47,617 bases of DNA from a virus. The notes beneath the pieces are model-generated. The model did not search any database and was not told the DNA's origin. It saw only the letters and a program-made list of their open reading frames with translations. Both the position numbers and the translations under genes were made by a program. Positions 517-47,617 of this stretch are shown piece by piece. The stretch is taken from the UHGV virus genome UHGV-0374065, one strand, 5' to 3'. How positions within the stretch are numbered: position 1 is the first letter of the stretch; each line of letters starts with the position of its first letter.

Positions 517-563
517 ACAATCTACACCACAAAATAATCGCTGTCAACACCTGTGATATAATC
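517..563. promoter_or_regulatory. Divergent promoter cassette upstream of the major tail gene
   Basis: Plus strand has an extended -10 TGaTATAAT (554-562) followed by RBS GGAG and ATG 599. Minus strand has TTGACA(543-548)-N17-TAGATT(520-525). The box CAATCTACACCAC (518-530) is present. Near-identical architecture recurs at 1912-1960. Confidence 0.5.
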
Positions 564-1911: not shown

Positions 1912-1960
1912 AATCTACATCACCACCTCGCAGGTGTCAACACTACTGAGATGATATAAT
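1912..1960. promoter_or_regulatory. Divergent promoter cassette inside the tail gene cluster
   Basis: Minus strand has TTGACA(1935-1940)-N17-TAGATT(1912-1917) driving the Imm-like operon. Plus strand has an extended -10 TGaTATAAT (1952-1960) driving the gene at 1981. Box AATCTACATCACC is present. Confidence 0.55.
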
Positions 1961-5102: not shown

Positions 5103-8906
<3,804 letters not shown>

Positions 8907-8945
8907 TACAATATACATCAAATTCACAAAGGAGCATTTATTATA

Positions 8946-12891: not shown

Positions 12892-13836
12892 TTATAAATT
12901 AAACTGTTTTTTGAACCATTCAGGCGTTTCCATTTCTATGACAGGATTACCCATTGAATAACCGGGCCACGAATTGGCTTTTTTGCACGCCTTGTAAATT
13001 TCCATAGCGCCATGCAACTGAATTCGACCGATGCGTAATTGCTCTTCAGTCAAGCGAATTAACGCAGGAATAAATGGTGCTTTCTTTTCCTGAACGAGAA
13101 GATTAACAGAGCGTGGCGCATGACCATATGCCGCAACAAACATGTCGTGCTGCATCGCCATTTTCATAAAGTACCCAAGTCTCGCAGCATGACGGAAAAA
13201 CTCTTCTGGCTTGGCGCTCACCGCTGTTTTGTAGTCGATGATGTCGCCACCTTTGGTAAGGCAGTCAAAGCGAACTTTTGCCTTCTCTCCGTTAAGTTCA
13301 CCTAGAATTGACACTTCAGCATAAGCACCAGCGAGAAGACTGCTGTAATAGCTGTTTGCGTGGATTACAGCACGCATTTGCTGAATAGCGTCATAATCAC
13401 CACCTTCCAGCATTTGCTTTCCTACAGCAGCTTTTTCAGCCTCTTCACGGATGACATCGTAAATTTTCACTGGCTCGCCAGTCGCCTGGATGATTTTGAT
13501 CACCTCAGCTTTCGACTTTCCTGAAAGTCCTTTGATGCCTCGTTCTTTTGCCCATGAGTTCATATCACTTACAGTAACAAGCAGGTCATCACCAAAATCT
13601 TCTTTGGTTGGCATTCGTGCATATTCAGCATCAAAACGCTCTGGTTCAAGCAACGCAGTATGGCTACCTGTACCGAATATAAGAGCTTTTGATTGCTCAT
13701 CCTCTTCGTCTTTGTATCGCCATGCTGCCGGGCATCTGTCAAGTATATTCCATAATCCAGAACCATTAATGTGCTCTGTGTCAGCATGATAATCCTGATT
13801 GCTTAATTCATTGTTGAAATAAACTCTCATCATCAC
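12892..13836 (-). CDS. PD-(D/E)XK recombination exonuclease (YqaJ / Cas4-like fold)
   Basis: 314 aa. Start overlaps HNH stop (ATGA). Lies in the recombination module next to Sak4 and SSB. Confidence 0.5.
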   Translation of the reverse strand: MMMRVYFNNELSNQDYHADTEHINGSGLWNILDRCPAAWRYKDEEDEQSKALIFGTGSHTALLEPERFDAEYARMPTKEDFGDDLLVTVSDMNSWAKERGIKGLSGKSKAEVIKIIQATGEPVKIYDVIREEAEKAAVGKQMLEGGDYDAIQQMRAVIHANSYYSSLLAGAYAEVSILGELNGEKAKVRFDCLTKGGDIIDYKTAVSAKPEEFFRHAARLGYFMKMAMQHDMFVAAYGHAPRSVNLLVQEKKAPFIPALIRLTEEQLRIGRIQLHGAMEIYKACKKANSWPGYSMGNPVIEMETPEWFKKQFNL

Positions 13837-14459
13837 TCTCCGTGGTTACAGAATTCTTTATGCATCTTTTCTCTGAATTTCATCACAGACAACCTCGCTC
13901 TCTCAATATCATTGAATAACCCAAGATGGTATCTTTTCCCGTTAACATCACAGTAAGCATGCCACTTTTTAACCTGTTTTTGCCAATACACACCTTTAAC
14001 TCCTGATGTGTTATTTTTTGGTTTTTTAGCGTTATACTGGTTCTGCATATTTGTTGCGATTCTTAAGTTGCAAATCCTGTTATCGTCACGCACACCGTTA
14101 ATGTGATCAATTTGACCTTCAGGCCAGAAACCATAATAAATCAACCATGCCAAGCGATGCGCGTAGTATCTTTTATTATTTATGCTTATCTCTATGTATC
14201 CGTTATGTTTTTTCCTGCCAGCGACACTACCCTTTCTTACACCTCCACCCGTCTTATTTCTAATGAAAACACCTGTTTCATGGTTGTAATTTAAGCTATC
14301 CAAAACAACATAACGTGGTATTCTTTTTCTTCTTCCTATGGTGTTTGACTCTGCACTTCCCTGAGCAAAATCTTGCTTTTGCAGTTCCGATAAACTCATT
14401 TCCACAAACCTCGCACTTCTTAACGGTGATAGCCATTTCTTACCCTCTATTGTAATCAT
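13833..14459 (-). CDS. HNH homing endonuclease with AP2 DNA-binding domain
   Basis: QIDHINGVRDDNRICNLRIAT (HNH_3) followed by NTSGVKGVYW...KWHA (AP2). One of four paralogues. Confidence 0.8.
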   Translation of the reverse strand: MITIEGKKWLSPLRSARFVEMSLSELQKQDFAQGSAESNTIGRRKRIPRYVVLDSLNYNHETGVFIRNKTGGGVRKGSVAGRKKHNGYIEISINNKRYYAHRLAWLIYYGFWPEGQIDHINGVRDDNRICNLRIATNMQNQYNAKKPKNNTSGVKGVYWQKQVKKWHAYCDVNGKRYHLGLFNDIERARLSVMKFREKMHKEFCNHGE

Positions 14460-14504: not shown

Positions 14505-14930
14505 TTAATCTACGTCATCCAGCAAGCCAAAATAGAAAAGCGTGGCTTTTTTTAATTCATCAAGCCCATAAGCTATGGCAGCATAATGACCAAGCCTGCA
14601 CATCTCTGTTAGCACTGCTGATTGATCCTTGCTCACCCTGCTTTTGCTTTTATCGCGGCGCTTTGCTTCAATCATCCCACAACTGTGATTTACCCCCGGA
14701 GTCATTATCACATTGTCGCCTATACCAGCCTTAACCCCCATCTTCTGGCGCTTCAGCACAAACTGCACCCTGCTTGATGTGCCAGTTTCGTTGGGTACAT
14801 GAAACCACAGAACATCAGGGAAGCGGTGTTGCATCCATGTTCCATAACCCATCTGGTCAGTCTCCTCTTTTGGGCATTCTCCTCGATAACCGCTATCAAA
14901 TACCCATATACCGCTATCAAGCTGCTTCAC
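14505..14930 (-). CDS. VRR-NUC domain nuclease
   Basis: 141 aa; FPDVLWFHVPNE...GVKAGIGDNVIMTPGVNHSCGMIEAKR is a PD-(D/E)XK VRR-NUC pattern. Confidence 0.55.
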   Translation of the reverse strand: MKQLDSGIWVFDSGYRGECPKEETDQMGYGTWMQHRFPDVLWFHVPNETGTSSRVQFVLKRQKMGVKAGIGDNVIMTPGVNHSCGMIEAKRRDKSKSRVSKDQSAVLTEMCRLGHYAAIAYGLDELKKATLFYFGLLDDVD

Positions 14931-17102: not shown

Positions 17103-17165
17103 TGCTATATCCTTTTATTGATGTTTCTACGTCAGTTAGCTTATACTCAATCTACACCAACAATC
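17103..17165. promoter_or_regulatory. Divergent promoter region with two operator-like boxes
   Basis: Plus strand has TTGATG(17118-23)-N17/18-TATACT with TCTACGTCA in the spacer and AATCTACACC downstream. Minus strand has TTGATT-N16-TATAAG. Confidence 0.55.
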
Positions 17166-17177
17166 AAGGGTAAATTT

Positions 17178-18131
17178 ATGAGATACGACTGGAAAGACAT
17201 TGAGCCAAAAATGATCGGAAATTGGCAAGCTGCCATCATGTCTATCGTCAATGTGGATAGCAGAGTTTTCAATGGCAAGCACCAGCCATGCCCGTCATGC
17301 TCAGGAAAAGACAGGTATCGCTTTGATGACAACTTCGAAACAAAAGGCGATGGCGGCGCAATCTGCAATCAGTGCGGTTCCGGCAGCGGCATGAATTGGC
17401 TGATGAAACTCTCCGGAATGAGCTTTCCTGAAGCGCTGGAGGCACTTGGTGGATTCCTGAATATGCACCAGCGTGAAAAGCTGGAGGCAATCAGGAAAGA
17501 GCTACCGAAGATAAATCACAGCGATGACTTCATCACCGAGCAGGAAGTCGCAGCAATCATGGCTAAAACGACTCGTGTCGCGATGAATGAGTGGACTTTG
17601 ATAAATGGTATTGGTTGCGACGTTAACGTCACCAGAGGCAAATCTGGAGAACTTATTGCGGTTGAGATGATGCGAGCTGACACAATGAAACTGTGCAACG
17701 TGGCATTCATTGGCATGGATGGTGATTCAATCAGAACGTTTTTCCGCGCAGGATACAACAAGGACTCAGCCATCAACGGCAAACTCACGCGCGGCGCGAT
17801 AAGCCCAATCGGAGAAGACAACGGGAAGTTCATTTACCTGGTATCTGATTATGCCGATGCGTGGAAATGCCACTACTTCACTGGCGCTCATGCCTGGTGC
17901 TGCTGGTCGCCGGAAAACATGTGGGAGGTTGTGCGCTCGGTTAGCGATGAAACGAAGGCGAGATTGCGCTGCATAGTTAATTATAAATTCGACGAACTTT
18001 GCGCTGCGGAAAATGCAGGGCTTCCGGTGATGCTTCCTGATGATGCTGAAACAATAAGGATGGCAAAGAGAATCAGGAGAAAGATTTATGACGCTGGCGA
18101 GCTGATAGAGAAAATGCCAGTAAGCAGATAA
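17178..18131 (+). CDS. DNA primase (zinc-ribbon plus primase core)
   Basis: CPSCSGKDRYRFDD...CNQCGSG zinc-binding motif. The start was re-called at ATG 17178 (MRYDWKD, RBS AAGGG); the track ORF begins at 17058. Confidence 0.65.
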   Translation: MRYDWKDIEPKMIGNWQAAIMSIVNVDSRVFNGKHQPCPSCSGKDRYRFDDNFETKGDGGAICNQCGSGSGMNWLMKLSGMSFPEALEALGGFLNMHQREKLEAIRKELPKINHSDDFITEQEVAAIMAKTTRVAMNEWTLINGIGCDVNVTRGKSGELIAVEMMRADTMKLCNVAFIGMDGDSIRTFFRAGYNKDSAINGKLTRGAISPIGEDNGKFIYLVSDYADAWKCHYFTGAHAWCCWSPENMWEVVRSVSDETKARLRCIVNYKFDELCAAENAGLPVMLPDDAETIRMAKRIRRKIYDAGELIEKMPVSR

Positions 18132-18134
18132 AAT

Positions 18135-18160
18135 AAACCCTCCGACTGGAGGGTTTTTGT
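18135..18160. terminator. Bidirectional rho-independent terminator
   Basis: AACCCTCC-GACT-GGAGGGTTTTTGTT. Confidence 0.7.
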
Positions 18161-18924: not shown

Positions 18925-20477
18925 TTCAACCTCGGATTTATGTGAACAGTGTTTCCGATAAATACGCAGTAACCATCCTCTTCAAGTGATGGCAATACAC
19001 TTGATCTGAGTCGGTCATAAATTTTAGGTATCCCTTTGAATGGTCGCACGTTTTTAAGTGAATCATAAAGCCACTTCACCGTTACGCTATTTTTCCCTTT
19101 CTGAGCGGAGGAGCGTAGTTTTTCGGCAACAACATCAAACTCAGATCGTTCACCAGCATACCCATTTGATTCAACAGCATCAGTGAACGTTTTTGTCAGT
19201 GCGTCATAAACACTGATGGCGCGACTAATTTCATTTTCACCGATAATCTTTGAACGCTTTCCTCCATCGCACCAGTTTTCAGCAGCGTGAAATATTGCTG
19301 CCAGACGTATTATTTGCTTATCAGCTTTACCCATCGCGCCACGAAGAAGAACGTGGTCCCACTTACCGCCGGGAAGGAAGTTTTTCTCCCACTGATTTCG
19401 TAACAGGCCGATCATTCTTGCTGAGTCATTGTGAAGCGTCAGTTTTGTTTTTTCTGCTGACACAACATTATGTATAAATCTTGCATATTCCGACCTCAAG
19501 CTGTCTGGCATTGGCTTGCTTACAGGGCAATCATTAACCATGTCCCAGTGTTCGCGATAGCCAAGCATTGATTGCTCTCGCAACATCAGGAAACGTTCAG
19601 AAAGACCGTTCCCCCTGTCGCCAGCGGCAAGAATGGCATCAATACTTTCATCCTGCGCAATCACACTTATGTTTCCAAGCACGTAACCAGATGAAACGCC
19701 ACGACCAACACGAGCAGAGCCAATGAATCCGCCATCCCATCCCTTCAGGATGACTTCGGCGTTTGCCTTTCCACCTTCCTTTCCGTAAGAGAGGCCAAGA
19801 CATGTGTTAAGAACGCTTGCCTCGTCACTTATCAGATTAAAAAAGCCACCTTCATGGATTGCCTGATGCTGAACAGCCTCCGGCGTTGCGTCAGTAAGTG
19901 GGTATGTAATCGTATAAAGCTCTTCCAGCTTCTCCTTTTCCCGAGCAATATCGTCGCCGATTAGTGCCTTTGCATTCTGATTGCTGGCCTCTTTATATGC
20001 CTTCATCAATTCTTCAATGCGAAGATTTATTTTTATGATCTGCTTTTCCATCTTTTTGGAAAGGTTGTCATATTCAATCTTCACCGGATTCATGTGCATT
20101 GAGTTGATAGCGGTTTTCCCTGCTGATGGAGGCTGAGAAGTAACCACGTAAAGAGAAACTGGAAGCTCTGAATGGTAATACTCAACGCTAAAGTTTCTCG
20201 TCATTGCGCTGGCGACGCAACCAAGTAAATGCATGAACGATGTATTTATTGGGAACTGAACTGCGCGAGCTGCAGCGATTGCATAACGAGACAGCAAATC
20301 AGTCCTGTGCTCACTGGTCAGTTCTGTTTCTGAATACGTTACATCACGCTCCTTACCTTCCTTGATGTCCAGCCACATATTTGAGCTTGGTATCATGCCA
20401 TAATGGAAGGCAACGCGAGCCGGAGATACTTTCAATTCCCTTGCTTCGTTGAAGATGTCTTGAGCTGTGATCATCAT
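18921..20477 (-). CDS. P-loop replication-associated protein (possible DUF3987-type helicase-loader/primase partner)
   Basis: 518 aa. Walker A-like SQPPSAGKT. Encoded between the origin-like region and the helicase/primase genes. Confidence 0.4.
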   Translation of the reverse strand: MMITAQDIFNEARELKVSPARVAFHYGMIPSSNMWLDIKEGKERDVTYSETELTSEHRTDLLSRYAIAAARAVQFPINTSFMHLLGCVASAMTRNFSVEYYHSELPVSLYVVTSQPPSAGKTAINSMHMNPVKIEYDNLSKKMEKQIIKINLRIEELMKAYKEASNQNAKALIGDDIAREKEKLEELYTITYPLTDATPEAVQHQAIHEGGFFNLISDEASVLNTCLGLSYGKEGGKANAEVILKGWDGGFIGSARVGRGVSSGYVLGNISVIAQDESIDAILAAGDRGNGLSERFLMLREQSMLGYREHWDMVNDCPVSKPMPDSLRSEYARFIHNVVSAEKTKLTLHNDSARMIGLLRNQWEKNFLPGGKWDHVLLRGAMGKADKQIIRLAAIFHAAENWCDGGKRSKIIGENEISRAISVYDALTKTFTDAVESNGYAGERSEFDVVAEKLRSSAQKGKNSVTVKWLYDSLKNVRPFKGIPKIYDRLRSSVLPSLEEDGYCVFIGNTVHINPRLK

Positions 20478-20759: not shown

Positions 20760-21080
20760 TACGACTCACGTGGGTAGCGTGGGGCAGCCGTGGGGAACAT
20801 CACCTTCCCCACGAAGTTTCACTCTAAGTATATGTAATATAATATAATTATTATTATTTGGGTTAATGGGTAATATTATTATTCATATTATAGATAGTAA
20901 TTAACATAATATTAACAAATGGATTATTTGAATATATTTATAAGGGGATGGGTATGAAATCTTCCCCTTTTTACCCACGAAAAATAAAAACATTAAAATC
21001 AATTATTTACGATGAAAAACGTGGGGCAACTGACCTTCCCCACGACCTGCCCCACGGGTAAAAATTTACCCCACGAGCAC
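20760..21080. repeat. Origin-like region: nine CGTGGGG/CCCCACG heptamer iterons flanking a roughly 180-bp stretch that is over 80% AT
   Basis: CGTGGG(G) at 20769, 20779, 20789, 21019. CCCCACG at 20807, 20971, 21037, 21048, 21069. The 12-mer ACCTTCCCCACGA occurs twice. Hairpin AAGGGGA-N14-TCCCCTT at 20942-20969. TTGAATCAT x2 at 20731-20759. Confidence 0.55.
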
Positions 21081-21098: not shown

Positions 21099-21128
21099 TT
21101 GACGTAGAATCACAACTGATGTAGATTG
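21099..21128 (+). promoter_or_regulatory. Early promoter TTGACG-N17-TAGATT carrying two operator-like boxes
   Basis: TTGACGTAGAAT then TGATGTAGATTG. Drives the small-gene array starting at 21158. Confidence 0.6.
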
Positions 21129-21157
21129 AACTCATAGGAACAAACGAGGGTGAAGAG

Positions 21158-23465: not shown

Positions 23466-23906
23466 ATGGCGAATCCAAATCCAAAACACAAGTTTTCCTC
23501 TACAAATCAACCGCCTCCGCGCGGTAAGAGTTATCGCACAGTGCTGCTTGAGGCGCTTCGTGCTGCAAATACACCGATGAATGAGATTGAATTCGTCACG
23601 TATTACATCAATAGGGCCATGACATGCGAAGACGCTCAGGCAACTGGTATGCTTCGAGAGATATTCCTGCGGCTCAACCCAATTCCTAAGCCTGTAGCTC
23701 CTCCTGTGGAGTTTGACTTCCCTGCTGACGGAACTCCGGTTCAGAAAATGGATGCAATCATCAAGGGTGTCTCCACTGGCGTCGTGCCTGCTGACATCGG
23801 CAAGATGATGGCTGACATTATCAAGTCTGGCCTTGATATTCAGGAAATCACCGAACTCGCAGCGCGACTTGAGCGACTGGAGAAATTACTGGAGCAGCAA
23901 CAGTAA
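23466..23906 (+). CDS. Putative terminase small subunit
   Basis: 146 aa. Lies upstream of the large subunit with only an HNH gene intervening. C-terminal coiled coil. Confidence 0.4.
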   Translation: MANPNPKHKFSSTNQPPPRGKSYRTVLLEALRAANTPMNEIEFVTYYINRAMTCEDAQATGMLREIFLRLNPIPKPVAPPVEFDFPADGTPVQKMDAIIKGVSTGVVPADIGKMMADIIKSGLDIQEITELAARLERLEKLLEQQQ

Positions 23907-23990
23907 CTGATTTATAATAATTAATGCGGCTAGGGGGCACCCGAAAAGCGACTCATCACCGCCTGCCGCATTCACTTCAATGATGCCCTG

Positions 23991-24521
23991 ATGAGGAATC
24001 TATATATGCTTACGCAAGCAGAATTAAAACACATCCTTGATTACAATCCTGACACCGGAATTTTCACATGGAAAAACCCACACAAGCAGGGAAGGGCTAA
24101 ACCCGGGAAGCCAGCAGGAACAATAAAATTATGCGGTACCGTTGGTAGCAAACGGCCGTATCACTATATTCATTTTGGAAGAAAGTGGTATAGATCGCAT
24201 AGGCTGGCTTGGCTTTACATGACTGGTAGTTGGCCTGAAAAAGAAATAGACCACATAAACAACAATACGCTTGATAATCGTTTTGTTAATCTGCGAGAGG
24301 CTGACCATCAACAAAATGGTTACAACAAAAAGCTACAGGCAAACAACACGTCAGGGGTTAAGGGTGTGTATTGGGATAAATCAAAATGCAAGTGGATGGC
24401 AAGATTAAATATAAATGGCAGGATGGTTAATCTTGGCAGGTTCGCCAACATTGAAGATGCAGTCAAAAAGATAATGGAAGAAAGAGAGAAACATCACGGG
24501 GAGTTTTTTAATCATGGCTAG
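23991..24521 (+). CDS. HNH-AP2 homing endonuclease inserted between terminase subunit genes
   Basis: EIDHINNNTLDNRFVNLREA and NTSGVKGVYWDKSKCKWMA. Stop overlaps terL start. Confidence 0.8.
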   Translation: MRNLYMLTQAELKHILDYNPDTGIFTWKNPHKQGRAKPGKPAGTIKLCGTVGSKRPYHYIHFGRKWYRSHRLAWLYMTGSWPEKEIDHINNNTLDNRFVNLREADHQQNGYNKKLQANNTSGVKGVYWDKSKCKWMARLNINGRMVNLGRFANIEDAVKKIMEEREKHHGEFFNHG

Positions 24522-25954: not shown

Positions 25955-25996
25955 TTGACCAATCTACACCGAGCGCATAGTATAATCTACATCAGG
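25955..25996 (+). promoter_or_regulatory. Promoter TTGACC-N17-TAGTAT with two AATCTACA boxes
   Basis: TTGACCAATCTACACCGAGCGCATAGTATAATCTACATCA. Confidence 0.55.
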
Positions 25997-27369: not shown

Positions 27370-27389
27370 CCATATACCATCCATGCTAT

Positions 27390-27419
27390 AATCCCATCCA
27401 ACGTGATGGGATTTTTTAT
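27390..27419 (+). terminator. Hairpin plus U-tract upstream of the portal gene (terminator, or 5'-UTR structure of an overlapping extended -10 promoter)
   Basis: AATCCCATC-CAACGT-GATGGGATTTTTTATT, immediately preceded by TGcTATAAT at 27383-27391. Confidence 0.5.
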
Positions 27420-28841: not shown

Positions 28842-29772
28842 CGCCAGACTTCCGCAACCCCGCATATCACAGAGCCTGACAGACCCGTTAGGCGCTGCAA
28901 CTCGCCTGTCAAAGATGGACAAGGTGATAACGCGCAAATACAAACAACTCAGGACTCGTTCGCTTGAGTTGTTTCGCACCATTCCGAGCAGTCAGACCAA
29001 CGCAGAATCAAGTGGTCTGTATTTCTACGATTTCAGTAGTGCGCGTGCCGCTACGTTCATGGATGAGTTACAGGAGCTGGTTGACGAGATTCTGCTGGAA
29101 GGTGATGATTTTAGTCATGGCAGGATGTGGGCCAATGTGTTCATTGGTGATGCGTATCAGGCGGGGACGCAGAAGGCTAACTCTGAGCTGTCAAGTCTTT
29201 CTCCGGTTTATGCTGAGCAGAGGCCGATTGCCACGATACTCTACAGTGAGCCTTATCTTAATCGACTGCAACTGGCGCACACAGCAGGATACTCAGACTG
29301 GCGCGGGTTGAGTGATTATTCCCGCCAGCAACTGGCATCTGTCATCATGGAAGGCATTGCGCGTGGTGCCAATCCTCGTGATGTTGAGGATGATATCGTC
29401 AAGCGTGTCGATGTATCTCACAGCTACGCAAAACAGATTGCGCAGACTGAAATAACCGGAACGCTGCGGCAGGCAAACAGACGAGAGGTTATTGAGGCGC
29501 GCGAAGAATTAGGTATTGAAACGGTTATGCTGTGGCAATCAGCATTAATGCGCACAACCCGCCAGACGCACGCGGCGAGACACGGACTGTTTTACACGCC
29601 AGAAGAGATTGACACATTTTATAGCGAGAATGGCAATAGATATAATTGCCACTGCGCCCAGGTACCAACACTGTTAATGGATGGCAAGCCAGTCATTCTT
29701 GAGTCGTCACAGGAAAGGTTAGACAAGCAACGAGATGCGTGGCAATCGGCAAACAAAAAGCCCTCTAAGTGA
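28816..29772 (+). CDS. Head morphogenesis protein (SPP1 gp7 / Mu F family)
   Basis: [21 protein letters not shown]...[22 protein letters not shown] matches the MuF motif. Start re-called at 28816 (MKMKILRF). Confidence 0.7.
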
Positions 29773-29784
29773 GGGCTTGGTTTT
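29757..29784. terminator. Rho-independent terminator
   Basis: AAGCCCTC-TAAGT-GAGGGCTTGGTTTT. Confidence 0.7.
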
Positions 29785-30767: not shown

Positions 30768-30911
30768 TCACTTAATATATTCAACAATCTCAACTTCGCG
30801 CATCTGCACCAGACTAAATGGCGCAACCACCTTGCCGCACGGACGGATTTTGATTTGCTCAATGCTGAACATTCTGCGACAACCGCTTTCTTTGAATTTG
30901 ACTATTGCCAT
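30768..30911 (-). CDS. Small hypothetical protein (47 aa), accessory cassette gene 1
   Basis: MAIVKFKESGCRRMFSIEQIKIRPCGKVVAPFSLVQMREVEIVEYIK. Below the track cutoff. Confidence 0.35.
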   Translation of the reverse strand: MAIVKFKESGCRRMFSIEQIKIRPCGKVVAPFSLVQMREVEIVEYIK

Positions 30912-30913
30912 GA

Positions 30914-31016
30914 TTTCTCCCTCACTCATCATTTGATGTAGATACTATGCACCACCACTCAATCTACGTCAATAGTCATTGTGATAGAATTAATCATTAT
31001 TTGAACTGGAGGCAGA
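30914..31016. promoter_or_regulatory. Divergent promoter region with two operator-like boxes
   Basis: TTGATGTAGATAC (30931) and CAATCTACGTCAAT (30964). Minus strand has TTGACG-N17/19-TAGTAT. Plus strand has an extended -10 TGaTAGAAT (30982-90). Confidence 0.5.
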
Positions 31017-31295
31017 ATGAAACTATCGCAACGAGGCGTGGAGACGTTTGGAATTACCGATGCCGTGGATATATCGCCTTACATCACTACCGAGACAACG
31101 CAGAATCAGTTCGACGCGCTGGCAAGTCTTGCCACCGACATTGGCATTTACGCGTTCCGTAAATCAACGCTTCTGAAGAAGCACAACCTCCGCTGCTTCT
31201 CATGTGCTGTTGCGCATTTCATCGCGTGGGGCGAGAAGACTGGCGACAAAGCAAAACGCAAAGCTGAAAAAGAGGTTTACTGGTATGGCTATTAG
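31017..31295 (+). pseudogene. C-terminal half of a GH24 (T4/P22-type) lysozyme, N-terminal catalytic half missing
   Basis: TQNQFDALASLATDIGIYAFRKSTLLKKHN...EKEVYW aligns with the C-terminal lobe of T4-type lysozymes. No Glu/Asp catalytic N-terminus is upstream. Confidence 0.55.
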
Positions 31296-31985: not shown

Positions 31986-32457
31986 ATACTGGCGACCGCT
32001 GGCAATTATTATAATTGTTGCCGCTGGCGCGTTGTGGGTGGCAAATAAAGTGTCCGGTTATGGCGAGCAACAATATGCCGCCGGATACGCGAAGGCAGTC
32101 GCAGAACAGAAGGCCGCAGACGAACAAGAGGAGCAACGACGCAATGCAGAACTGCAAAAGATTCAGGCCGACGCACAGCAAAGGATTGATGCTGCGCGCA
32201 ATGATGCTGTTAATGCTGCCGCTAAGTCTGGCAGGTTGCAGCAACAACTCACCAGTATCCGCAAGCAGCTCGTCGGATATTCCACCGCTGAGTCCATTGG
32301 CAACCCAGCCGCAGAAACCGGAGTTTTGCTTGCAGACGTGCTCCGCAAATCTGTCGAAAGAAATCAACAGCTGGCAGATTACGCTGACAGGGCGAGAGAG
32401 GCAGGATTGACGTGTGAGGCACAGTATAATTCTCTGCGTAATAAAAAAGCCCCGTGA
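31966..32457 (+). CDS. Rz: i-spanin (Rz)
   Basis: N-terminal transmembrane segment LAIIIIVAAGALWVA, then a long coiled-coil periplasmic domain. Confidence 0.75.
   Translation: MMSILVKYWRPLAIIIIVAAGALWVANKVSGYGEQQYAAGYAKAVAEQKAADEQEEQRRNAELQKIQADAQQRIDAARNDAVNAAAKSGRLQQQLTSIRKQLVGYSTAESIGNPAAETGVLLADVLRKSVERNQQLADYADRAREAGLTCEAQYNSLRNKKAP
32189..32410 (+). CDS. Rz1: o-spanin (Rz1) embedded in the +1 frame of Rz
   Basis: MLRAMMLLMLPLSLAGC lipobox, then a Pro/Ser-rich mature part. SD AGGA before ATG 32189. Confidence 0.7.
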   Translation: MLRAMMLLMLPLSLAGCSNNSPVSASSSSDIPPLSPLATQPQKPEFCLQTCSANLSKEINSWQITLTGRERQD

Positions 32458-32471
32458 TGGGGCTTTGTTTT
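32446..32471. terminator. Bidirectional rho-independent terminator
   Basis: AAGCCCC-GTGAT-GGGGCTTTGTTTT. Confidence 0.75.
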
Positions 32472-34153: not shown

Positions 34154-34197
34154 TTGACGTTTCTACATCATTTAGTCAATACTTGTTGACGTAGATT
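34154..34197. promoter_or_regulatory. Promoter region with TTGACG-N18-AATACT and a downstream TTGACGTAGATTG box
   Basis: TTGACGTTTCTACATCATTTAGTCAATACT is almost identical to TTGATGTTTCTACGTCAGTTAGCTTATACT at 17118. Confidence 0.55.
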
Positions 34198-34483: not shown

Positions 34484-34678
34484 ATGGCGCATGACGAACT
34501 GTACGAAGAATCGTTAATCCAGAGGTTGAATGAAGTTGAGCGCACTCGCGAATGGCTGGAGTGCGAGTTACGAGAAGTGCGCAACCGCCTGCAACGCAAG
34601 CGCAGTCAGCAAAGAGATGTCATCGACTGGTCTGGGGGTACACATAAATTTAACAATCTGGGAGAATGGTTGAAATGA
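34484..34678 (+). CDS. Hypothetical coiled-coil protein
   Basis: 64 aa. Confidence 0.4.
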   Translation: MAHDELYEESLIQRLNEVERTREWLECELREVRNRLQRKRSQQRDVIDWSGGTHKFNNLGEWLK

Positions 34679-35205
34679 GCAACATTAGTAAGGAAAGCAT
34701 TTTAAAGTTCCTCCAGCATGATGAAAATACAGGAAACTTTCTATGGATTGATAATTTCTCAAGAAAATCAAAGAAAGGGAAGGTGGCTGGAGGTATTACA
34801 TCGCATGGGTATTGGAGAATTCAACTCCCCATCGGGAAGTTTTACGCACACAGAATGGCGTGGATTGTTTGCAATGGAGATATACCAAACGGATATGAGA
34901 TTGATCACATAAATGGGAACAAGAAAGATAATCGCATCAGCAACCTAAGATTGGTCACAAGAGGTAAAAATGTTATGAATGTAGGCGTGAAAAACAATAA
35001 TACAAGCGGAGTTAAGGATGTTGTTTGGGACTCTTCGCGAGAAAGGTGGAGGGTTCAAATTACAGCCAATGGCAAGCATTATTATGGAGGTAGATTCTCG
35101 TCAATAACACAAGCAAAAGAGGAGAGGAACAGGCTCATAAAGATGGTTCACGGGAAATTTTTGAATACAAAAGGTGAGCAATATGACACTACTAATGAAC
35201 GATGA
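34675..35205 (+). CDS. HNH-AP2 homing endonuclease
   Basis: EIDHINGNKKDNRISNLRLV and NTSGVKDVVWDSSRERWRV. Confidence 0.8.
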   Translation: MSNISKESILKFLQHDENTGNFLWIDNFSRKSKKGKVAGGITSHGYWRIQLPIGKFYAHRMAWIVCNGDIPNGYEIDHINGNKKDNRISNLRLVTRGKNVMNVGVKNNNTSGVKDVVWDSSRERWRVQITANGKHYYGGRFSSITQAKEERNRLIKMVHGKFLNTKGEQYDTTNER

Positions 35206-35419
35206 GAAATTACTTGAATGCCCGTTTTGTGGTTGTGATGACGTAAGTGTTATTGATGACGGCGAATGGTTGCACGTTGAGTGCGGAGATTGTTTTTGCC
35301 GCACTGACTCGTATTGCTGCGCATCCACGGCAATGAAGAAATGGAACACAAGAGGTGGACACCTCTACACTTCCGACGACTTCAATCAGGCAGCAGAGGA
35401 GCGTGATTATGGACTATAA
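35183..35419 (+). CDS. Lar-family restriction-alleviation zinc-finger protein
   Basis: LECPFCG...LHVECGDCFCRTD...AMKKWNTR matches the Lar CxxC...CxxC...WN(R/T)R pattern. RBS AAGGTGAG. Confidence 0.6.
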   Translation: MTLLMNDEKLLECPFCGCDDVSVIDDGEWLHVECGDCFCRTDSYCCASTAMKKWNTRGGHLYTSDDFNQAAEERDYGL

Positions 35420-35897
35420 ATCACAAATCATGCGCGTGATTATGAATCACCCCGGAGCAACGCGCGCATACATTGAGAAGCATTGCGGAGGTAAGCATTC
35501 AAGCACCACAACGCATCGCTTACATGAGATGCTTGCTCTTGGATTCATTCGTCGCGAGAAGTCAGTGATTCGCGGCGGCAAGTGGCAGTATAAATATTTC
35601 ATCTCTGATGATGCAGCCGGTATTGATGATGCTATTAAGTGCCATTTGCTTGATAACGCTGGCGCGGAAGTGAAAGAAATCAGTACCACCACTGGCATTG
35701 ATTATCGCATCGTGAAAAGCCGCATCCGCATTATGTTTCATAACGGTGATGTGACGCGAAGCTATGACCACCACAAGAAGCTGTGGCGTTATTCATGGAA
35801 GGAGAAGGAAGTCAATGTAAGCAATCTATTTAATTCACTTCTTCGCAGCGTAAGGGGTCAGCATGGGAAAAGCCAAACGCAAGAAGCAAGAGTATGA
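35409..35897 (+). CDS. Protein with two predicted winged-helix DNA-binding domains
   Basis: Start re-called at ATG 35409 (MDYKSQIMRVI). Two wHTH-like segments. Possible regulator. Confidence 0.4.
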   Translation: MDYKSQIMRVIMNHPGATRAYIEKHCGGKHSSTTTHRLHEMLALGFIRREKSVIRGGKWQYKYFISDDAAGIDDAIKCHLLDNAGAEVKEISTTTGIDYRIVKSRIRIMFHNGDVTRSYDHHKKLWRYSWKEKEVNVSNLFNSLLRSVRGQHGKSQTQEARV

Positions 35898-37081: not shown

Positions 37082-37275
37082 CACCGTATATCTTTTGTTC
37101 ATCATGGGCTGCTATCATTTAATCAGGCGGTAGCCCATGAATATAATCCCTATCACTTACTTTCTCACGCTATACGCGCTCACAGACTCACCATTGTTTG
37201 CACTGGCTACCGCCTCATGGTGCTATATCTCCCTGTGTTATAATTCGACCACAAACTAACCGTGGAGAGTTAACC

Positions 37276-40893: not shown

Positions 40894-41712
40894 ATGGATG
40901 TCAGGTACGAAATAAACACAACTCCGGCTGACGGAGAGGTTTTGCTTAGCGAAACTATGTCTGCGGACTGGTCAGCATTACAGGTGCAGATTGTGCCGCT
41001 AAATTCTTCCGGTGGCTATGAGCCATTAACAAGCGGGTCTGTTTCTGTAATGGTATCGCCGTTCGCGTCTGGTGATTTCTGGATTGACGTTAACAATAAT
41101 AATTATTATGGCGTGGCGCTGCGACTGAAGGTGATTAAGTCACAAATACCCGCTGGCATTGCATCCCTGAAGGTCCTGGTATGGCGAGCTGCTACATCAG
41201 TACCATCAAGTCAGGTTGTCGCGCAGTCTTATGCAGAGCTTGCCAATAAGCAAGGGAAGCTGTTCACTGCGTCGCGCAGGGTGACTGATGTTGCTGGCGG
41301 AGCTAACCTTGATAGCATCTTTATCACCGGTTCAAAACAGGTTGTGTTTAATCAACGCATCATCGGGTACACCGGTAAAGGTGTCGTAGCGTCAATCTAC
41401 CGTGGAGCTGTAGCCACTGGCGGTACGGCGGCAGAGATTAATAATCCCAACGACATAACGCCTCAGGCAGCTACGGCGCAGTTACTTACTGGTGCTACCG
41501 TGACAAACATTGGACAGCTGACGGTGGCAGCAACATACAGTGAGGGTAACGCATCGAATCAGGGTCAGGGTAACTCGCAGGCGAAACTCGGCGAGCAGAT
41601 TATCATGGCACCAAATACGACGTATTTGCTTCGCATAACATCACTGGACACTGCGGTGCAAAATATCAATGCATATGTGTCATGGTTTGAGGATGATACT
41701 TATCTGGCGTGA
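40894..41712 (+). CDS. Putative virion structural protein (272 aa)
   Basis: RBS GGGGG, Gly/Ala/Thr-rich beta-type sequence. Within the head gene block. Confidence 0.4.
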   Translation: MDVRYEINTTPADGEVLLSETMSADWSALQVQIVPLNSSGGYEPLTSGSVSVMVSPFASGDFWIDVNNNNYYGVALRLKVIKSQIPAGIASLKVLVWRAATSVPSSQVVAQSYAELANKQGKLFTASRRVTDVAGGANLDSIFITGSKQVVFNQRIIGYTGKGVVASIYRGAVATGGTAAEINNPNDITPQAATAQLLTGATVTNIGQLTVAATYSEGNASNQGQGNSQAKLGEQIIMAPNTTYLLRITSLDTAVQNINAYVSWFEDDTYLA

Positions 41713-41715
41713 TAA

Positions 41716-41742
41716 AACAAAGCCCCGTGAAGGGGCTTTGAT
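41716..41742. terminator. Bidirectional rho-independent terminator
   Basis: AAAGCCCC-GTGA-AGGGGCTTTG. Confidence 0.7.
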
Positions 41743-42630: not shown

Positions 42631-43430
42631 TAAACGGACCTCATGAATGCTTTAATGAATTCTGCTGCGACTTGTGGAACTATGGCATTACCATAACCGC
42701 GCAATCGTCCCACTCTTGCGGATACCCCATGAGTTGCCTCGCAAAATCCGCCTGGTATGACTCTAGTTTCCTTATCTGCTCCATGGTTGGGTTTCCATGA
42801 ATCCCATAAACATGAAGCCACATCTGGCGATAAAGAGTATCGTTCCTGAATTTCCCGTCCTTTCTGTAAAATGACTTGCTGAGATTCCCGTAATCCTTCC
42901 ATCCTCGCGCCGTTGGTGTCGCCCATCCTCGCGCCAAAGATGATTCTTTTCCTTTCCTGTGGAGAGCCGACGCTGCAAGCTGGCAATACTGACGCCCCGC
43001 AGGCGTAGCCTTTGTCTTCCAGGTTAAGGAATACAAAATCGAGCCAGTGCTTCCCAATTGCTGCTGCAACCTGCTCTCCAAACAGCAATTCAGGCTTGCA
43101 CTCTCTGATGAGCCTGAGAAATGCTGGGGCAAGGTGTCGATCGTCGTCAAATCCGAGAGACTTACCGGCAACGCTAAACGGCTGGCAAGGTGGTGATCCT
43201 GTCCAGAGTCGAGTGCTTTCTGGTATTCCTGCCAGCTGGAGTGCAAGGGGCCACCCTCCGATTCCGGCAAAGAAGTGACACTGTGTAAATCCTTCCAGGT
43301 CTGAAGGGGTGACTTCGGTGATTGATCGTTCATCGACATATCCGTAAGGAATTAGTTTATTGTTAATTAATTCACGCAGCCATGCCGCTGCGCCCTTGTC
43401 CCACTCATTGTAATAGTGGACCATCATCAC
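42630..43430 (-). CDS. DNA (cytosine-5)-methyltransferase, compact phage type
   Basis: Motif I FAGIGG, motif IV GSPPCQPFSVAGK, motif VI-like FGEQV, motif X GNAIVPQVA. Confidence 0.8.
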   Translation of the reverse strand: MMMVHYYNEWDKGAAAWLRELINNKLIPYGYVDERSITEVTPSDLEGFTQCHFFAGIGGWPLALQLAGIPESTRLWTGSPPCQPFSVAGKSLGFDDDRHLAPAFLRLIRECKPELLFGEQVAAAIGKHWLDFVFLNLEDKGYACGASVLPACSVGSPQERKRIIFGARMGDTNGARMEGLRESQQVILQKGREIQERYSLSPDVASCLWDSWKPNHGADKETRVIPGGFCEATHGVSARVGRLRGYGNAIVPQVAAEFIKAFMRSV

Positions 43431-44236
43431 ATCTTCTCCAGAATTGCCATCACCTCGTGAATATCAGCAACAGGAATCTTGATAAACTCCTCATTCTCTG
43501 CCACTACATGACCAGCAGGAAGAATAACGTGGTCAGCTGGCTTCAGTAACTCAATCAGTCGGTCTACTGGCTTAATCTTTTTCGACTTGAGCACTTTCGC
43601 CGTGACCTTGTCTTTGCCTTGTGCCTTCGCTTCTTCGACTGCCTCGTCGATAACTTTAACCGCATCATCGCCATGCTCGCGAGTTACTGCTACGGCATTT
43701 GCATAGCTGATTTGCCCTGCACTGATTCGCGCTTTTACTTCGGCTGGCACATCACCCAGTGACAGGTGCATCTGCACGTCAGAAACTGAGCGCCCTACCT
43801 TCTTGGCGATTTCCTCGTTGGTCCAGCCAAAACCCTTCAGTCGCGTGTAAGCCTTTGCGCGTTCAAACGGGTCAAGCTGCTTACCCTGACTGGACGACAC
43901 CATGAAGGCGATTTTATCTGCTTCGCCTCCTGTGAAATCCTTGCACTCAATACGAACAATTGGTGCGCCACGCTCAATGGCACGCAATGCGCCTAGATAG
44001 CGATACTGACCATCAAGAATGCGGATTCCCTTCTCATCAGGAATAACTGTTAATGCTGGTAATGGCTGACCTGATTCCCAGCACTGCGCGAAATACTCCA
44101 CATGCTGCTCGTCTGCTTCGCGGATGTTGTATCCCGGCTCCAGATAGATTTGCTCCACTGGCACGAGATAGGTTTTGTTAACAGCGATTCCGTTGCGCGT
44201 TTCTTTGTCTGAATAGATTTTGCTAAGTGTTTTCAT
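43427..44236 (-). CDS. ParB-like nuclease-domain protein
   Basis: ParB/Srx box GIRILDGQYRYLGALRA. The start was re-called at 44236 (MKTLSKIY); the track ORF begins at 44329. Confidence 0.6.
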   Translation of the reverse strand: MKTLSKIYSDKETRNGIAVNKTYLVPVEQIYLEPGYNIREADEQHVEYFAQCWESGQPLPALTVIPDEKGIRILDGQYRYLGALRAIERGAPIVRIECKDFTGGEADKIAFMVSSSQGKQLDPFERAKAYTRLKGFGWTNEEIAKKVGRSVSDVQMHLSLGDVPAEVKARISAGQISYANAVAVTREHGDDAVKVIDEAVEEAKAQGKDKVTAKVLKSKKIKPVDRLIELLKPADHVILPAGHVVAENEEFIKIPVADIHEVMAILEKM

Positions 44237-44431: not shown

Positions 44432-45061
44432 TTAATCCTCATCACCAGAATTAGCAATATCGTAAAACTGACCGTAGGTTATCTGCTTAAAGTTATCAGG
44501 TATCGTTACCTGTCCGTGACCTTCATCTTTTGTATTTGGCACAGCAAAAATCAAACAATCATCCTTTTTCGGGTGTTTGCCTCCATAAGTAGAAAGCATT
44601 GCAAAACCAAATCCGCGACCAGATTGCTCACCAATGCCGGTACGTGCGATGCCATAATGGTTAACAATGTAGTCCTTCCATACTGGCAATAACTTTAATT
44701 TCTCGTTTGCCTCGCGCATCACTGCGTCCAGCTTTTTGTTGTATTCACGACCATCCTTTGTGTTTCCTTTCCCACGAACAATAACCACGCGCTGACCTTC
44801 CCAAAAATCTTCACGTTTTATTGTTACAGGGCATGGAAATTCAAATTTATTGCTCCACGCAAAACTCTCAAGCAGGCCACCGCTAACAGCGCCCCAACTG
44901 CGCGTTGTGGTAAATGCGACAGCTCCAACCTTTTTCATTGCGTCACCGAAAATTTCATTGCGGCGATTCTTGATGTCATCGTATGCGTCGATTAGTTTCT
45001 TAACATCATCACCTTCAACCATGTAATAATCATAATGTTTTGCGTTACTACTCATCTTCAT
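44432..45061 (-). CDS. Hypothetical protein (209 aa), first gene of the ParB/methyltransferase operon
   Basis: Start re-called at MKMSSN (SD GAGGTG). Acidic C-terminus. No recognisable domain. Confidence 0.45.
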   Translation of the reverse strand: MKMSSNAKHYDYYMVEGDDVKKLIDAYDDIKNRRNEIFGDAMKKVGAVAFTTTRSWGAVSGGLLESFAWSNKFEFPCPVTIKREDFWEGQRVVIVRGKGNTKDGREYNKKLDAVMREANEKLKLLPVWKDYIVNHYGIARTGIGEQSGRGFGFAMLSTYGGKHPKKDDCLIFAVPNTKDEGHGQVTIPDNFKQITYGQFYDIANSGDED

Positions 45062-45075
45062 CACCTCTAACATTT

Positions 45076-45127
45076 ATTGTTGTTTCTACGTCACTAACTA
45101 TAAACGCCACATCAATCTACGTCAACA
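45076..45127. promoter_or_regulatory. Face-to-face divergent promoters with two operator-like boxes
   Basis: Plus strand has TTGTTG-N16-TATAAA (45076-45103). Minus strand has TTGACG-N17-TATAGT. Boxes TTTCTACGTCAC and CAATCTACGTCAAC. Confidence 0.55.
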
Positions 45128-45172
45128 GGAATATGCTAAAATCATGCTAATCAAACAACAGGAGATTTAAAC

Positions 45173-45292
45173 ATGGGTTCAACCAACTCACCATCTCGTT
45201 CGCGCGCTACTGGCAACACAAAAACTGGCGGCAAAACTGGCGTGGTGAAGCCAAACGGCTCTACCCGTTCACCATCGCGCGGTAAAAAATAA
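45173..45292 (+). CDS. Small basic Ser/Thr/Gly-rich protein (39 aa)
   Basis: RBS AGGAG; MGSTNSPSRSRATGNTKTGGKTGVVKPNGSTRSPSRGKK. Coordinates are +/-1. Confidence 0.35.
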   Translation: MGSTNSPSRSRATGNTKTGGKTGVVKPNGSTRSPSRGKK

Positions 45293-47560: not shown

Positions 47561-47617
47561 TGGTGGACACGGACGGATTTGAACCTTCAATCAGCCGATT
47601 ATTAGTCGGTTGCTTTA
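47561..47617 (-). tRNA. 3' 57 nt of a canonical tRNA (continues at 1..20); anticodon loop CUAAUAA, predicted anticodon AAU (assignment uncertain)
   Basis: Reverse complement is ...AAAGC-A-ACCGA-CTAATAA-TCGGC-TGATT-GAAGG-TTCAAAT-CCGTC-CGTGTCC-A-CCA. It contains T54 T55 C56, G53-C61, A73 and an encoded CCA. Confidence 0.6.

Follow-up and report, generated by a model that had tools for sequence, protein, structure and literature searches.

Why does one short word recur in front of so many transcription units of the same virus? The window, i.e., the whole stretch of DNA analysed here, is the complete genome of the siphophage UHGV-0374065 (47,617 bp), and the word in question is an asymmetric 11-bp box, TGAYGTAGAWW. 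The original prediction, made from the letters alone, listed 15 sites and saw in them the operator of a single DNA-binding protein. What is established here is that the motif exists, is restricted to non-coding DNA, is conserved in related phages, does not fit the requirements of sigma-70, and co-varies with a helix of a ParB-like protein encoded by the phage. It appears fairly likely that the box is an operator laid over sigma-70-type early promoters and read by one phage protein, most likely the ParB-like one.

The window corresponds, in circularly permuted form, to Escherichia phage 6947 / HC6 (~95% identity). Its group includes the Salmonella phages Vi-II-E1, Skate, Seszw, LPST10, STGO-35-1 (Caminolopintovirus) and Akira, and Shigella phage DS8. 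Farther kin are Roufvirus-like phages of Klebsiella, Aeromonas and Vibrio; the terminases of BUCT610 (Klebsiella) and pYD38-A (Vibrio) are only ~60% identical to that of the window. About 200 genomes of this phage group have been deposited. Several abstracts call its members lytic, and neither an integrase nor an immunity repressor is annotated in the tables of five relatives.

A bounded box confined to promoter regions

All 15 listed sites are present, each within 0-5 nt of the position first given, and their alignment yields nTGAYGTAGAWWSW. The exact word TGAYGTAGAT occurs 8 times in the window, for 0.23 expected, and TGRYGTAGAW occurs 14 times, for 0.66 expected, a number reached by none of 100 shuffles. 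These exact-pattern counts are the unbiased figure, because the weight matrix used to scan the window (14 columns) was trained on the sites themselves. With a cut-off of 14.2 the matrix returns 16 sites, and all 16 are non-coding, as had been claimed for the box, in a genome where the non-coding share is 7.95% (own gene calls). The hits next in rank, which score 13.0 or less, are mostly within genes. At 14505-14518, the overlap of the site with the upstream open reading frame (ORF) is limited to the stop codon. The one further site found by the matrix, 8908-8921 (TTGATGTATATTGT), is weak, and it is doubtful because the invariant G8 is broken and because it is missing from the distant clade.

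The boxes are usually paired, as the original prediction had noticed. Pairs occur in six regions. Measured from start to start, the direct pairs are spaced by 17, 23, 25 and 31 bp, the boxes of the convergent pair by 26 bp and those of the divergent pair by 28 bp. Boxes stand at all seven divergent junctions (the tRNA unit being counted) and at three junctions between co-directional genes, and a sigma-70-like promoter overlaps a box in each box-bearing region. The idea that a box marks every promoter region holds for the seven divergent junctions and does not hold for a late class of extended -10 promoters, whose core has no box.

Some copies are themselves parts of promoters. The promoters TTGACG-N17-TAGATT at 21099 and TTGACA-N17-TAGATT on the minus strand at 1940>1912 and 547>519 were found as described, and so were the copies that lie in the spacer or at +1 of different promoters (e.g., the primase promoter and those at 25955 and 34154). 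In the rightward promoters at 17118, 25955 and 34154, a reverse box fills the spacer right after the -35 and a second box covers the -10/+1. The stretches 17118-17147 and 34154-34183 are identical at 24 of 30 positions, again as predicted. Three copies, called type B, read TGAYGTAGAAAC; their TAGAAA is a poor -10, and they are located at the start site or in the spacer. The type-B copies alone are imperfect palindromes (TGAYG-N6-CRTCA). Relative to the start site, boxes are found from about -57 to +10 and in both orientations. The boxes at 30961-30971 and 45114-45124 have a double position: each is the -35 of a leftward early promoter, and each also spans the positions from about -36 to -25 in a rightward late promoter which lacks a -35.

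Conservation of the box among related phages

Five other genomes (6947, STGO-35-1, DS8, Klebsiella BUCT610 and Vibrio pYD38-A) have the box at matching intergenic positions, and phages of Escherichia, Salmonella, Shigella, Klebsiella and Vibrio share an identical box. The orthologous alignments show that the box columns are invariant while the neighbouring spacer columns vary. In the region 45040-45175, identity is 0.987 for the 11-bp cores versus 0.745 for their surroundings (63 distinct sequences); the corresponding values are 0.995 versus 0.838 in the region 30900-31025 (28 distinct sequences) and 0.933 versus 0.785 in the region 470-605. The logo of 194 distinct sites from 38 loci has 11 informative columns, sharp edges and flat flanks; its core columns are circular, the sites having been picked with the matrix, and its flanks are not. 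The flat flanks imply that no hexamer lies at a fixed distance from the box.

The orientation of a box is not always kept. In the region 30900-31025, the second box has opposite orientations in the E1-like and Roufvirus-like (BUCT610, pYD38-A) clades, and its place over the -10/+1 is conserved. In STGO-35-1 (L002, 1458-2130), a leftward gene is inserted after the terminase gene together with its own pair of boxes at a 17-bp spacing (2099, 2116). Boxes thus seem to travel with gene cassettes, and they may mark the boundaries of mosaic modules.

A full-text motif search of the literature returned nothing relevant, the one phage match being an unrelated primer; the genome description of Vi-II-E1, which lies outside that search, may mention repeats. 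Literature searches by genus name and for phage ParB-like regulators turned up nothing on a box circuit, and no account of the transcription organisation of this phage group was found.

Operator or promoter element

The box holds both TTGAC and TAGATT, and six copies are the -35 or the -10 of good promoters with a 17-bp spacing. It could thus be a promoter element of the host RNA polymerase, in the form of composite hexamers or as the target of a polymerase modified by a phage factor, as a T4 MotA box or a late-promoter motif is. In either form it would mark strong early promoters and would not be a repressor site. Boxes occur only in promoter regions, most of them are directed at a nearby gene on the same strand, and they outlast the loss of either candidate regulator (see below), all of which is consistent with such an element. 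However, few copies work as one. Read as a -10, the box has a good -35 partner in 3 copies only (517, 1910, 21116); read as a -35, it has a good -10 partner in 3 copies only (21099, 30959, 45112); and 10 of the 16 boxes have no hexamer partner at all when a spacing of 16-18 bp is sought.

The pattern of conservation is not that of sigma-70 either. The invariant positions of the box, G5, G8 and A9, are the ones that sigma-70 does not require, and the key positions of sigma-70 vary: T is found in 61% of sites at position 0, which matches the first T of the -35, and in 74% at position 11, which matches T-7 of the -10. Type-B copies offer TAGAAA, copies lie at +1 or in spacers in both orientations, three of them (25961, 25984, 8910) are antisense to both flanking genes, and the site described above is flipped between two clades. 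The range of about -57 to +10 leaves no fixed MotA-like register, and lineage-specific variants of the box (see below) would be unexpected for a conserved host polymerase. Being found in either orientation and anywhere within this range, the box behaves as an operator and not as a promoter element. A primary role as a promoter element seems unlikely, and the box is probably the operator of a phage-encoded protein, judging from its placement and conservation. The TAGAAA of type-B boxes, at +3 to +8, was also considered as a sigma-dependent pause element, and was rejected as a general explanation since the second boxes of three promoters are reverse-oriented.

A ParB/KorB-like protein whose helix co-varies with the box

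The best candidate binder is an orphan protein with a helix-turn-helix (HTH) domain. It scores 44.1 bits with Pfam HTH_ParB (cut-off 22.6) and 26.9 bits with KorB (cut-off 22.3), and it matches Spo0J (1vz0) with E = 1e-12 as well as Noc and KorB chains; its sequence matches include the KorB structures 8qa8 and 1r71. By these matches, the protein 43427-44236 is a genuine member of the ParB family. Its N-terminal region aligns to Spo0J from residue 40; the GERRxRA patch reads DGQ(Y/H)RYLGA, box III reads SSSQGK, and Pfam ParBc is absent at E <= 0.01. The annotation tables of five relatives list no ParA-like gene, a search that did not extend to every protein of the window.

The helix WTNEEIAKKVGRSVSDVQMHLSL (..VQMH..) is 100% identical in five genomes with canonical boxes, the whole protein being 80% identical between clades. 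The recognition helix RSVSDVQMHLSL is also present in three loci where the protein is 63-72% identical overall (L112-L114), and canonical boxes are present there. Two separate contigs, L193 and L194, combine a ..VQQH.. helix with the box AGCGGTAGATT, and L195 combines a ..IHTH.. helix with the box TGAYGCAGATA. Boxes of the GCGGTAGAT type occur 5 times in L193, for 0.17 expected, all 5 of them intergenic, and there are no canonical copies. Similarly, TGAYGCAGAT occurs 5 times in L195, for 0.15 expected and again always in intergenic DNA, together with two canonical copies. Neither variant (the GCGGTAGATT type of L193 or the TGAYGCAGATA type) is present in the window. The existence of lineage-specific variants suggests that the box is read by a phage protein which co-evolves with it, and not by RNA polymerase or a host factor.

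Boxes also stand in front of the candidate's own gene. In the window, the promoter of the ParB-like operon carries the most conserved box pair measured (45083-45124), with site scores of 20.7, the top value, and 16.9. L194 has a box pair within 86 bp directly upstream of the parB-like gene, and in L193 the parB-like operon is preceded by an inverted pair, AATCTACtggcgGTAGATT. In Jilinviruses, the helix is further diverged and 1-2 box-like sites lie at the promoter of this operon. PT1 has two identical copies of ATGATGCAGAATGA; ECOO78 has one site, which scores 18.3 where 2% of shuffles reach 18, and it has no box family. The Jilinvirus sites are a lead only.

ECOO78 (L038) also contains six copies of a near-palindrome, ACAATCATTGT, including one at 18120, immediately upstream of the ParB-like gene. 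This may be a repeated regulatory word of its own. The type-B box (ACGT-A-GAAACA) resembles a chromosomal parS half-site (ACGT-GAAACA), a likeness which is not used as evidence. The CCCCACG repeats found at 20778-21075 were considered as the true ParB site, which is unlikely: the Roufvirus-like clade, in which the ParB-like HTH is 100% identical, does not conserve them.

Several points weigh against the assignment of the box to the ParB-like protein. The variant patterns were chosen after inspection of the loci, the metagenomic loci are only ~20 kb each, and the co-variation comes from four or five lineages which are not phylogenetically independent. No recognisable box family was found in L196 (helix SVSDVQSHLCL) or in L118-L120. 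ParB-family sites are normally palindromic, whereas the box is asymmetric, and the degenerate GERRxRA patch indicates that the protein is not a typical clamp dependent on cytidine triphosphate (CTP). Klebsiella phage VLCpiS13a (L192, NC_071152.1, 7618-7800) lacks the N-terminal domain and the HTH of the ParB-like protein, of which a 60-aa C-terminal remnant is left, and it keeps 14 intact boxes. This deletion shows that the ParB-like protein is dispensable; it is not proof that the boxes are kept up without the protein. It is seen in VLCpiS13a only, the sister phage VLCpiS13c being intact, so there was little time for the boxes to decay. With these points taken into account, the covariation of helix and box modestly favours the ParB-like protein as the box-binding protein.

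The evidence for this link applies equally if the boxes are parS-like loading sites, at which the ParB-like protein would serve mainly for the condensation, positioning or protection of replicating DNA and not for transcription, the sites being intergenic since genes cannot hold them. ParB-family proteins typically load at dispersed sites and then spread, and the 14-16 sites are 2-12 kb apart around the genome. However, the boxes lie precisely over -35, -10 or +1, mostly as pairs on single promoters, and they avoid other non-coding DNA, namely the terminator-bearing convergent junctions and the late extended -10 promoters. Moreover, the 466-bp region that resembles a replication origin is box-free save for one edge (21099-21129), and the arginine patch of the protein is degenerate. 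A main role of this kind is decidedly unlikely.

Other candidate regulators

Two regulators had been proposed for the box, a small protein at 20474 and a two-winged-helix protein at 35409. The first can be set aside, as DS8, BUCT610 and pYD38-A, which all bear boxes, have no homologue of it. The second matches PHROG 1687, "MarR family transcription regulator" (E = 4.6e-58), and gives weak matches to Pfam MarR_2 and winged helix-turn-helix (wHTH) families. A single polypeptide with two wHTH domains could read an asymmetric site; a box-bearing promoter stands at the head of its operon, both clades have homologues, and VLCpiS13a, which is devoid of the ParB-like HTH, retains the gene. Yet between clades with the same boxes the protein shows an identity of only 36-37%, with different putative recognition helices. 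It is cut to 54 aa in Akira (L190, NC_054647.1, 1330-1494) and in 64795_sal3, two phages in which every examined box is kept. No homologue was detected in L112-L114 and L193-L196 (boxes or variants), including the neighbourhood of the Lar gene in L195, and at an AlphaFold2 mean pLDDT of 47.7 the fold itself is unconfirmed. It is thus very unlikely that this MarR-like protein is the one for which the box is the operator.

The predicted phage-specific regulon under one DNA-binding protein therefore survives in part: the box is operator-like, bounded, conserved, ill-fitting to sigma-70 and variable between lineages, and neither of the two regulators named for it is retained. A conserved 272-aa protein (40894-41712) was also rejected as the binder, as DS8 lacks this protein and the high identity of the protein elsewhere is mosaic.

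A conserved gamma-proteobacterial host protein (a global regulator or a nucleoid protein) that the phage exploits would explain why the box is identical in phages of five host genera and survives the loss of either phage candidate, but it is highly improbable, in that related lineages, seen on metagenomic contigs, use differing box variants that seem to fit a co-evolving phage protein better. Among E. coli factors, none is known to us whose site matches the box; CRP, FNR, IHF, MetJ, MatP and sigma-32/E/28/54 were among those compared, and none of them is known to fit. FNR shares just a TTGAT half-site, and the invariant GTAGA of the box would fall in the spacer that FNR does not contact.

Proposed mechanism

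Binding of a protein to the box, repression by it and the timing of this repression are inferred. In the proposed circuit, one copy of the box would usually lie over the -35 hexamer or the spacer and the second over the -10 or the transcription start, in either orientation. Since the boxes cover promoter elements, their occupancy should shut the early promoters. Promoters covered by boxes stand at the start of the leftward operons for replication, recombination and small ORFs, and of the small-ORF leaders of rightward operons. The late structural and lysis operons have box-free extended -10 cores, and the circuit would thus act as an early shut-off or as an early-to-late switch. The circuit would also include autoregulation; the ParB-like operon is under a box-bearing promoter. 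Each HTH would read one asymmetric half-site (the core GTAGAWW and the left arm TGAY), and a flexible dimer would bridge two boxes at variable spacing and orientation. That the boxes at 30961-30971 and 45114-45124 could also activate the rightward late promoters is a conjecture.

In its widest form, the proposal is that a large clade of virulent siphophages (E1/Skate/Seszw-like and Roufvirus-like, ~200 genomes) may have recruited an orphan protein of the ParB/KorB fold to switch transcription genome-wide, with a half-site over the -35, spacer, -10 and +1 positions of every early promoter and at least three co-evolved helix/box specificity pairs. We advance it tentatively, as a nearly even call.

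Comparison with known systems

KorB of the IncP-1 plasmid RK2 is a global repressor of the ParB family with about a dozen OB operators. The likeness lies in the ParB-family HTH, in the use of one operator across the replicon, with many copies on or near -35 regions, and in the autoregulation of its own operon. As in a KorB-type regulon, an operator-like box is found in the window at many promoters, including that of the candidate regulator's own operon (14-16 sites). However, OB is palindromic and 13 bp long; the box is an asymmetric 11-mer which occurs in either orientation and is often paired. KorB has the partners ParA (IncC) and KorA and acts on a plasmid replicon; here the replicon is a virulent phage, a ParA-like gene is not annotated in the group, and the CTP-binding motif of the ParB-like protein is degenerate.

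The gp71 protein of mycobacteriophage L5 reportedly binds asymmetric 13-bp operator/stoperator sites, present in tens of copies. These stoperators are like the box in being asymmetric, in occurring in many copies in short non-coding regions, and in having a consensus that holds a -35 hexamer. They have a strict orientation and act on elongation inside operons, whereas the boxes are on promoters, in both orientations (30934+/30961-, 34160-/34187+), and only 3 sites lie between co-directional genes. Furthermore, gp71 is the immunity repressor of a temperate phage, and the group of the window has no annotated integrase or immunity repressor.

P1 ParB (boxA/boxB) and Shigella VirB (virS) also use short asymmetric half-sites of the heptamer type, with variable spacing and orientation, and flexibly linked HTH modules. 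P1 parS, however, is one compact centromere and is not genome-wide, VirB is an anti-silencer that acts upstream of promoters, and the sites of these proteins show only a loose WWTC..AC resemblance to the box. VirB is described as a ParB-family protein that acts on promoter transcription and not on partition (PMC10770331).

Two further systems resemble the box in its position with respect to promoters. In the lytic Bacillus phage phi29, the site of p4 (A2b/A2c-A3) lies over an early -35 and stands in for the missing -35 of an opposed late promoter, but p4 is unrelated in sequence and binds an inverted repeat at one locus. The T4 MotA box is a phage-specific word of 9-11 bp that replaces or overlaps the -35 while the sigma-70 -10 stays; its centre is fixed at about -30 and it has one orientation, whereas the box described here ranges from about -57 to +10 in both. 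Having no palindrome, no ParA or KorA partner and no orientation rule, and being found in a virulent phage, the box system is not a member of the KorB, L5 gp71 or P1/VirB families, which are its nearest analogues in function.

Transcription layout and neighbouring features

The box copies, the late promoters and the two candidate proteins are collected in Table 1.

Table 1. Box copies, late-class promoters and candidate binding proteins, in coordinates of the window
Feature	Position	Strand	Context
Box core TGGTGTAGATT	519..529	-	-10 of leftward TTGACA-N17-TAGATT (547>519), which drives the conserved leader and the split tRNA gene
Box core TGATGTAGATT	1912..1922	-	-10 of leftward TTGACA-N17-TAGATT (1940>1912); small early ORFs from 1682-1876 onward
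Weak, doubtful copy TGATGTATATT	8910..8920	-	Between two tail genes; kept in close relatives, not in BUCT610/pYD38-A
Box core TGACGTAGATT	14507..14517	-	3' end of ORF 14505-14930, upstream of leftward recombination genes; no -35 partner
Type-B box TGACGTAGAAA	17124..17134	-	Spacer of rightward primase promoter TTGATG-N18-TATACT (17118-17147)
Box core TGGTGTAGATT	17149..17159	-	About -7 to +7 of rightward primase promoter
Box core TGACGTAGAAT	21100..21110	+	Its TTGACG is the -35 of promoter 21099-21127
Box core TGATGTAGATT	21117..21127	+	Its TAGATT is the -10 of promoter 21099-21127
Box core CGGTGTAGATT	25961..25971	-	Reverse, in the spacer of rightward promoter TTGACC...TAGTAT/TATAAT (25955-25986)
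Box core TGATGTAGATT	25984..25994	-	Reverse, over -10/+1 of rightward promoter 25955-25986; leftward gene absent there
Box core TGATGTAGATA	30934..30944	+	Over -10/+1 of leftward TTGACG-N17-CATAGT (30972>30944)
Box core TGACGTAGATT	30961..30971	-	-35 of leftward promoter 30972>30944; about -36 to -25 of rightward extended -10 lysis promoter
Type-B box TGATGTAGAAA	34160..34170	-	Shared spacer of opposed overlapping promoters, (+) TTGACG-N18-AATACT and (-) TTGACT-N17-CAAGAT
Box core TGACGTAGATT	34187..34197	+	About -4 to +10 of rightward promoter 34154-34183, at the head of the MarR-like gene's operon
Type-B box TGACGTAGAAA	45083..45093	-	About -3 to +8 of leftward promoter of the ParB-like protein's operon
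Box core TGACGTAGATT	45114..45124	-	-35 of TTGACG-N17-TATAGT (45125>45097); about -36 to -25 of rightward extended -10 TGCTAAAAT
Extended -10 promoter TGATATAAT	554..562	+	Major tail gene; late class; core box-free
Further late-class extended -10 promoters	1952-1960, 27384-27392, 30982-30990, 37236-37244	+	
Orphan ParB/KorB-like HTH protein, 269 aa	43427..44236	-	Best candidate binder; recognition helix RSVSDVQMHLSL
MarR-like protein, two putative winged-helix domains	35409..35897	+	Weaker candidate than the ParB-like protein

The extended -10 motif TGNTAKAAT has 6 copies, all on the plus strand, for 3.3 expected, a count which is not significant by itself. Five of the six lie just 5' of late genes: major tail (554), tail assembly (1952), portal (27384), lysis (30982) and capsid (37236); the sixth is at 6322 (+). 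Another extended -10, TGCTAAAAT, was read from the sequence ahead of the head-tail genes, at ~45134-45142 (+). None of the late-class extended -10 promoters has a box over its core, and the set looks like a separate class of late promoters without -35 elements.

Several convergent junctions contain a GC-rich hairpin with T-runs on either side (1322-1341, 18135-18156, 29758-29778, 32446-32466 and 41718-41740). These hairpins are bidirectional terminators. With box promoters and bidirectional terminators at the unit boundaries, the genome is tiled into alternating units.

A tRNA gene on the minus strand is split by the ends of the window (47564-47617 and 1-20). Rfam finds its 3' part; ARAGORN gave no match to the split gene of the window. 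The leftward promoter 547>519 would give a non-coding leader of ~500 nt ahead of this gene, and the first ~45 nt of the leader (512-470) are kept even in pYD38-A.

The CCCCACG repeat is present seven times, in two clusters (20778-20813 and 21020-21075) which flank ~200 bp of extremely AT-rich DNA beside the operon of the DUF3987 helicase/primase. The region 20778-21075 resembles a replication origin, complete with iterons and an unwinding element. Roufvirus-like phages have not kept the repeat.

Other features of the window are a match to the Rfam int-alpA RNA family at 23923-23986 (+), with 42.6 bits for a gathering score of 35.8, located between the ORF 23466-23906 and the HNH/terminase genes, and three HNH endonuclease genes (13833-14399, 24006-24521 and 34675-35205). 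The latter adjoin box-bearing junctions or core genes, and their presence varies among close relatives. They are probably mobile homing elements.

Significance

Many phages of this group were isolated as candidates for therapy or biocontrol, the targets being Salmonella, E. coli and Klebsiella. The analysis provides a testable map of their expression, with box-covered early promoters at divergent junctions, extended -10 promoters before the portal, capsid, tail and lysis genes, and terminators at convergent junctions. Natural knock-outs are available for both candidates: VLCpiS13a can be compared with VLCpiS13c for the ParB-like protein, and Akira and 64795_sal3 with their relatives for the MarR-like protein. 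For the engineering of these phages, the box is also a compact and portable means of acting on early genes.

If it is the ParB-like protein that binds the box, global regulation of the ParB/KorB type reaches from plasmids to virulent phages. The three natural helix/box specificity pairs would then form a series that may tell how ParB-family HTH domains change their DNA specificity.

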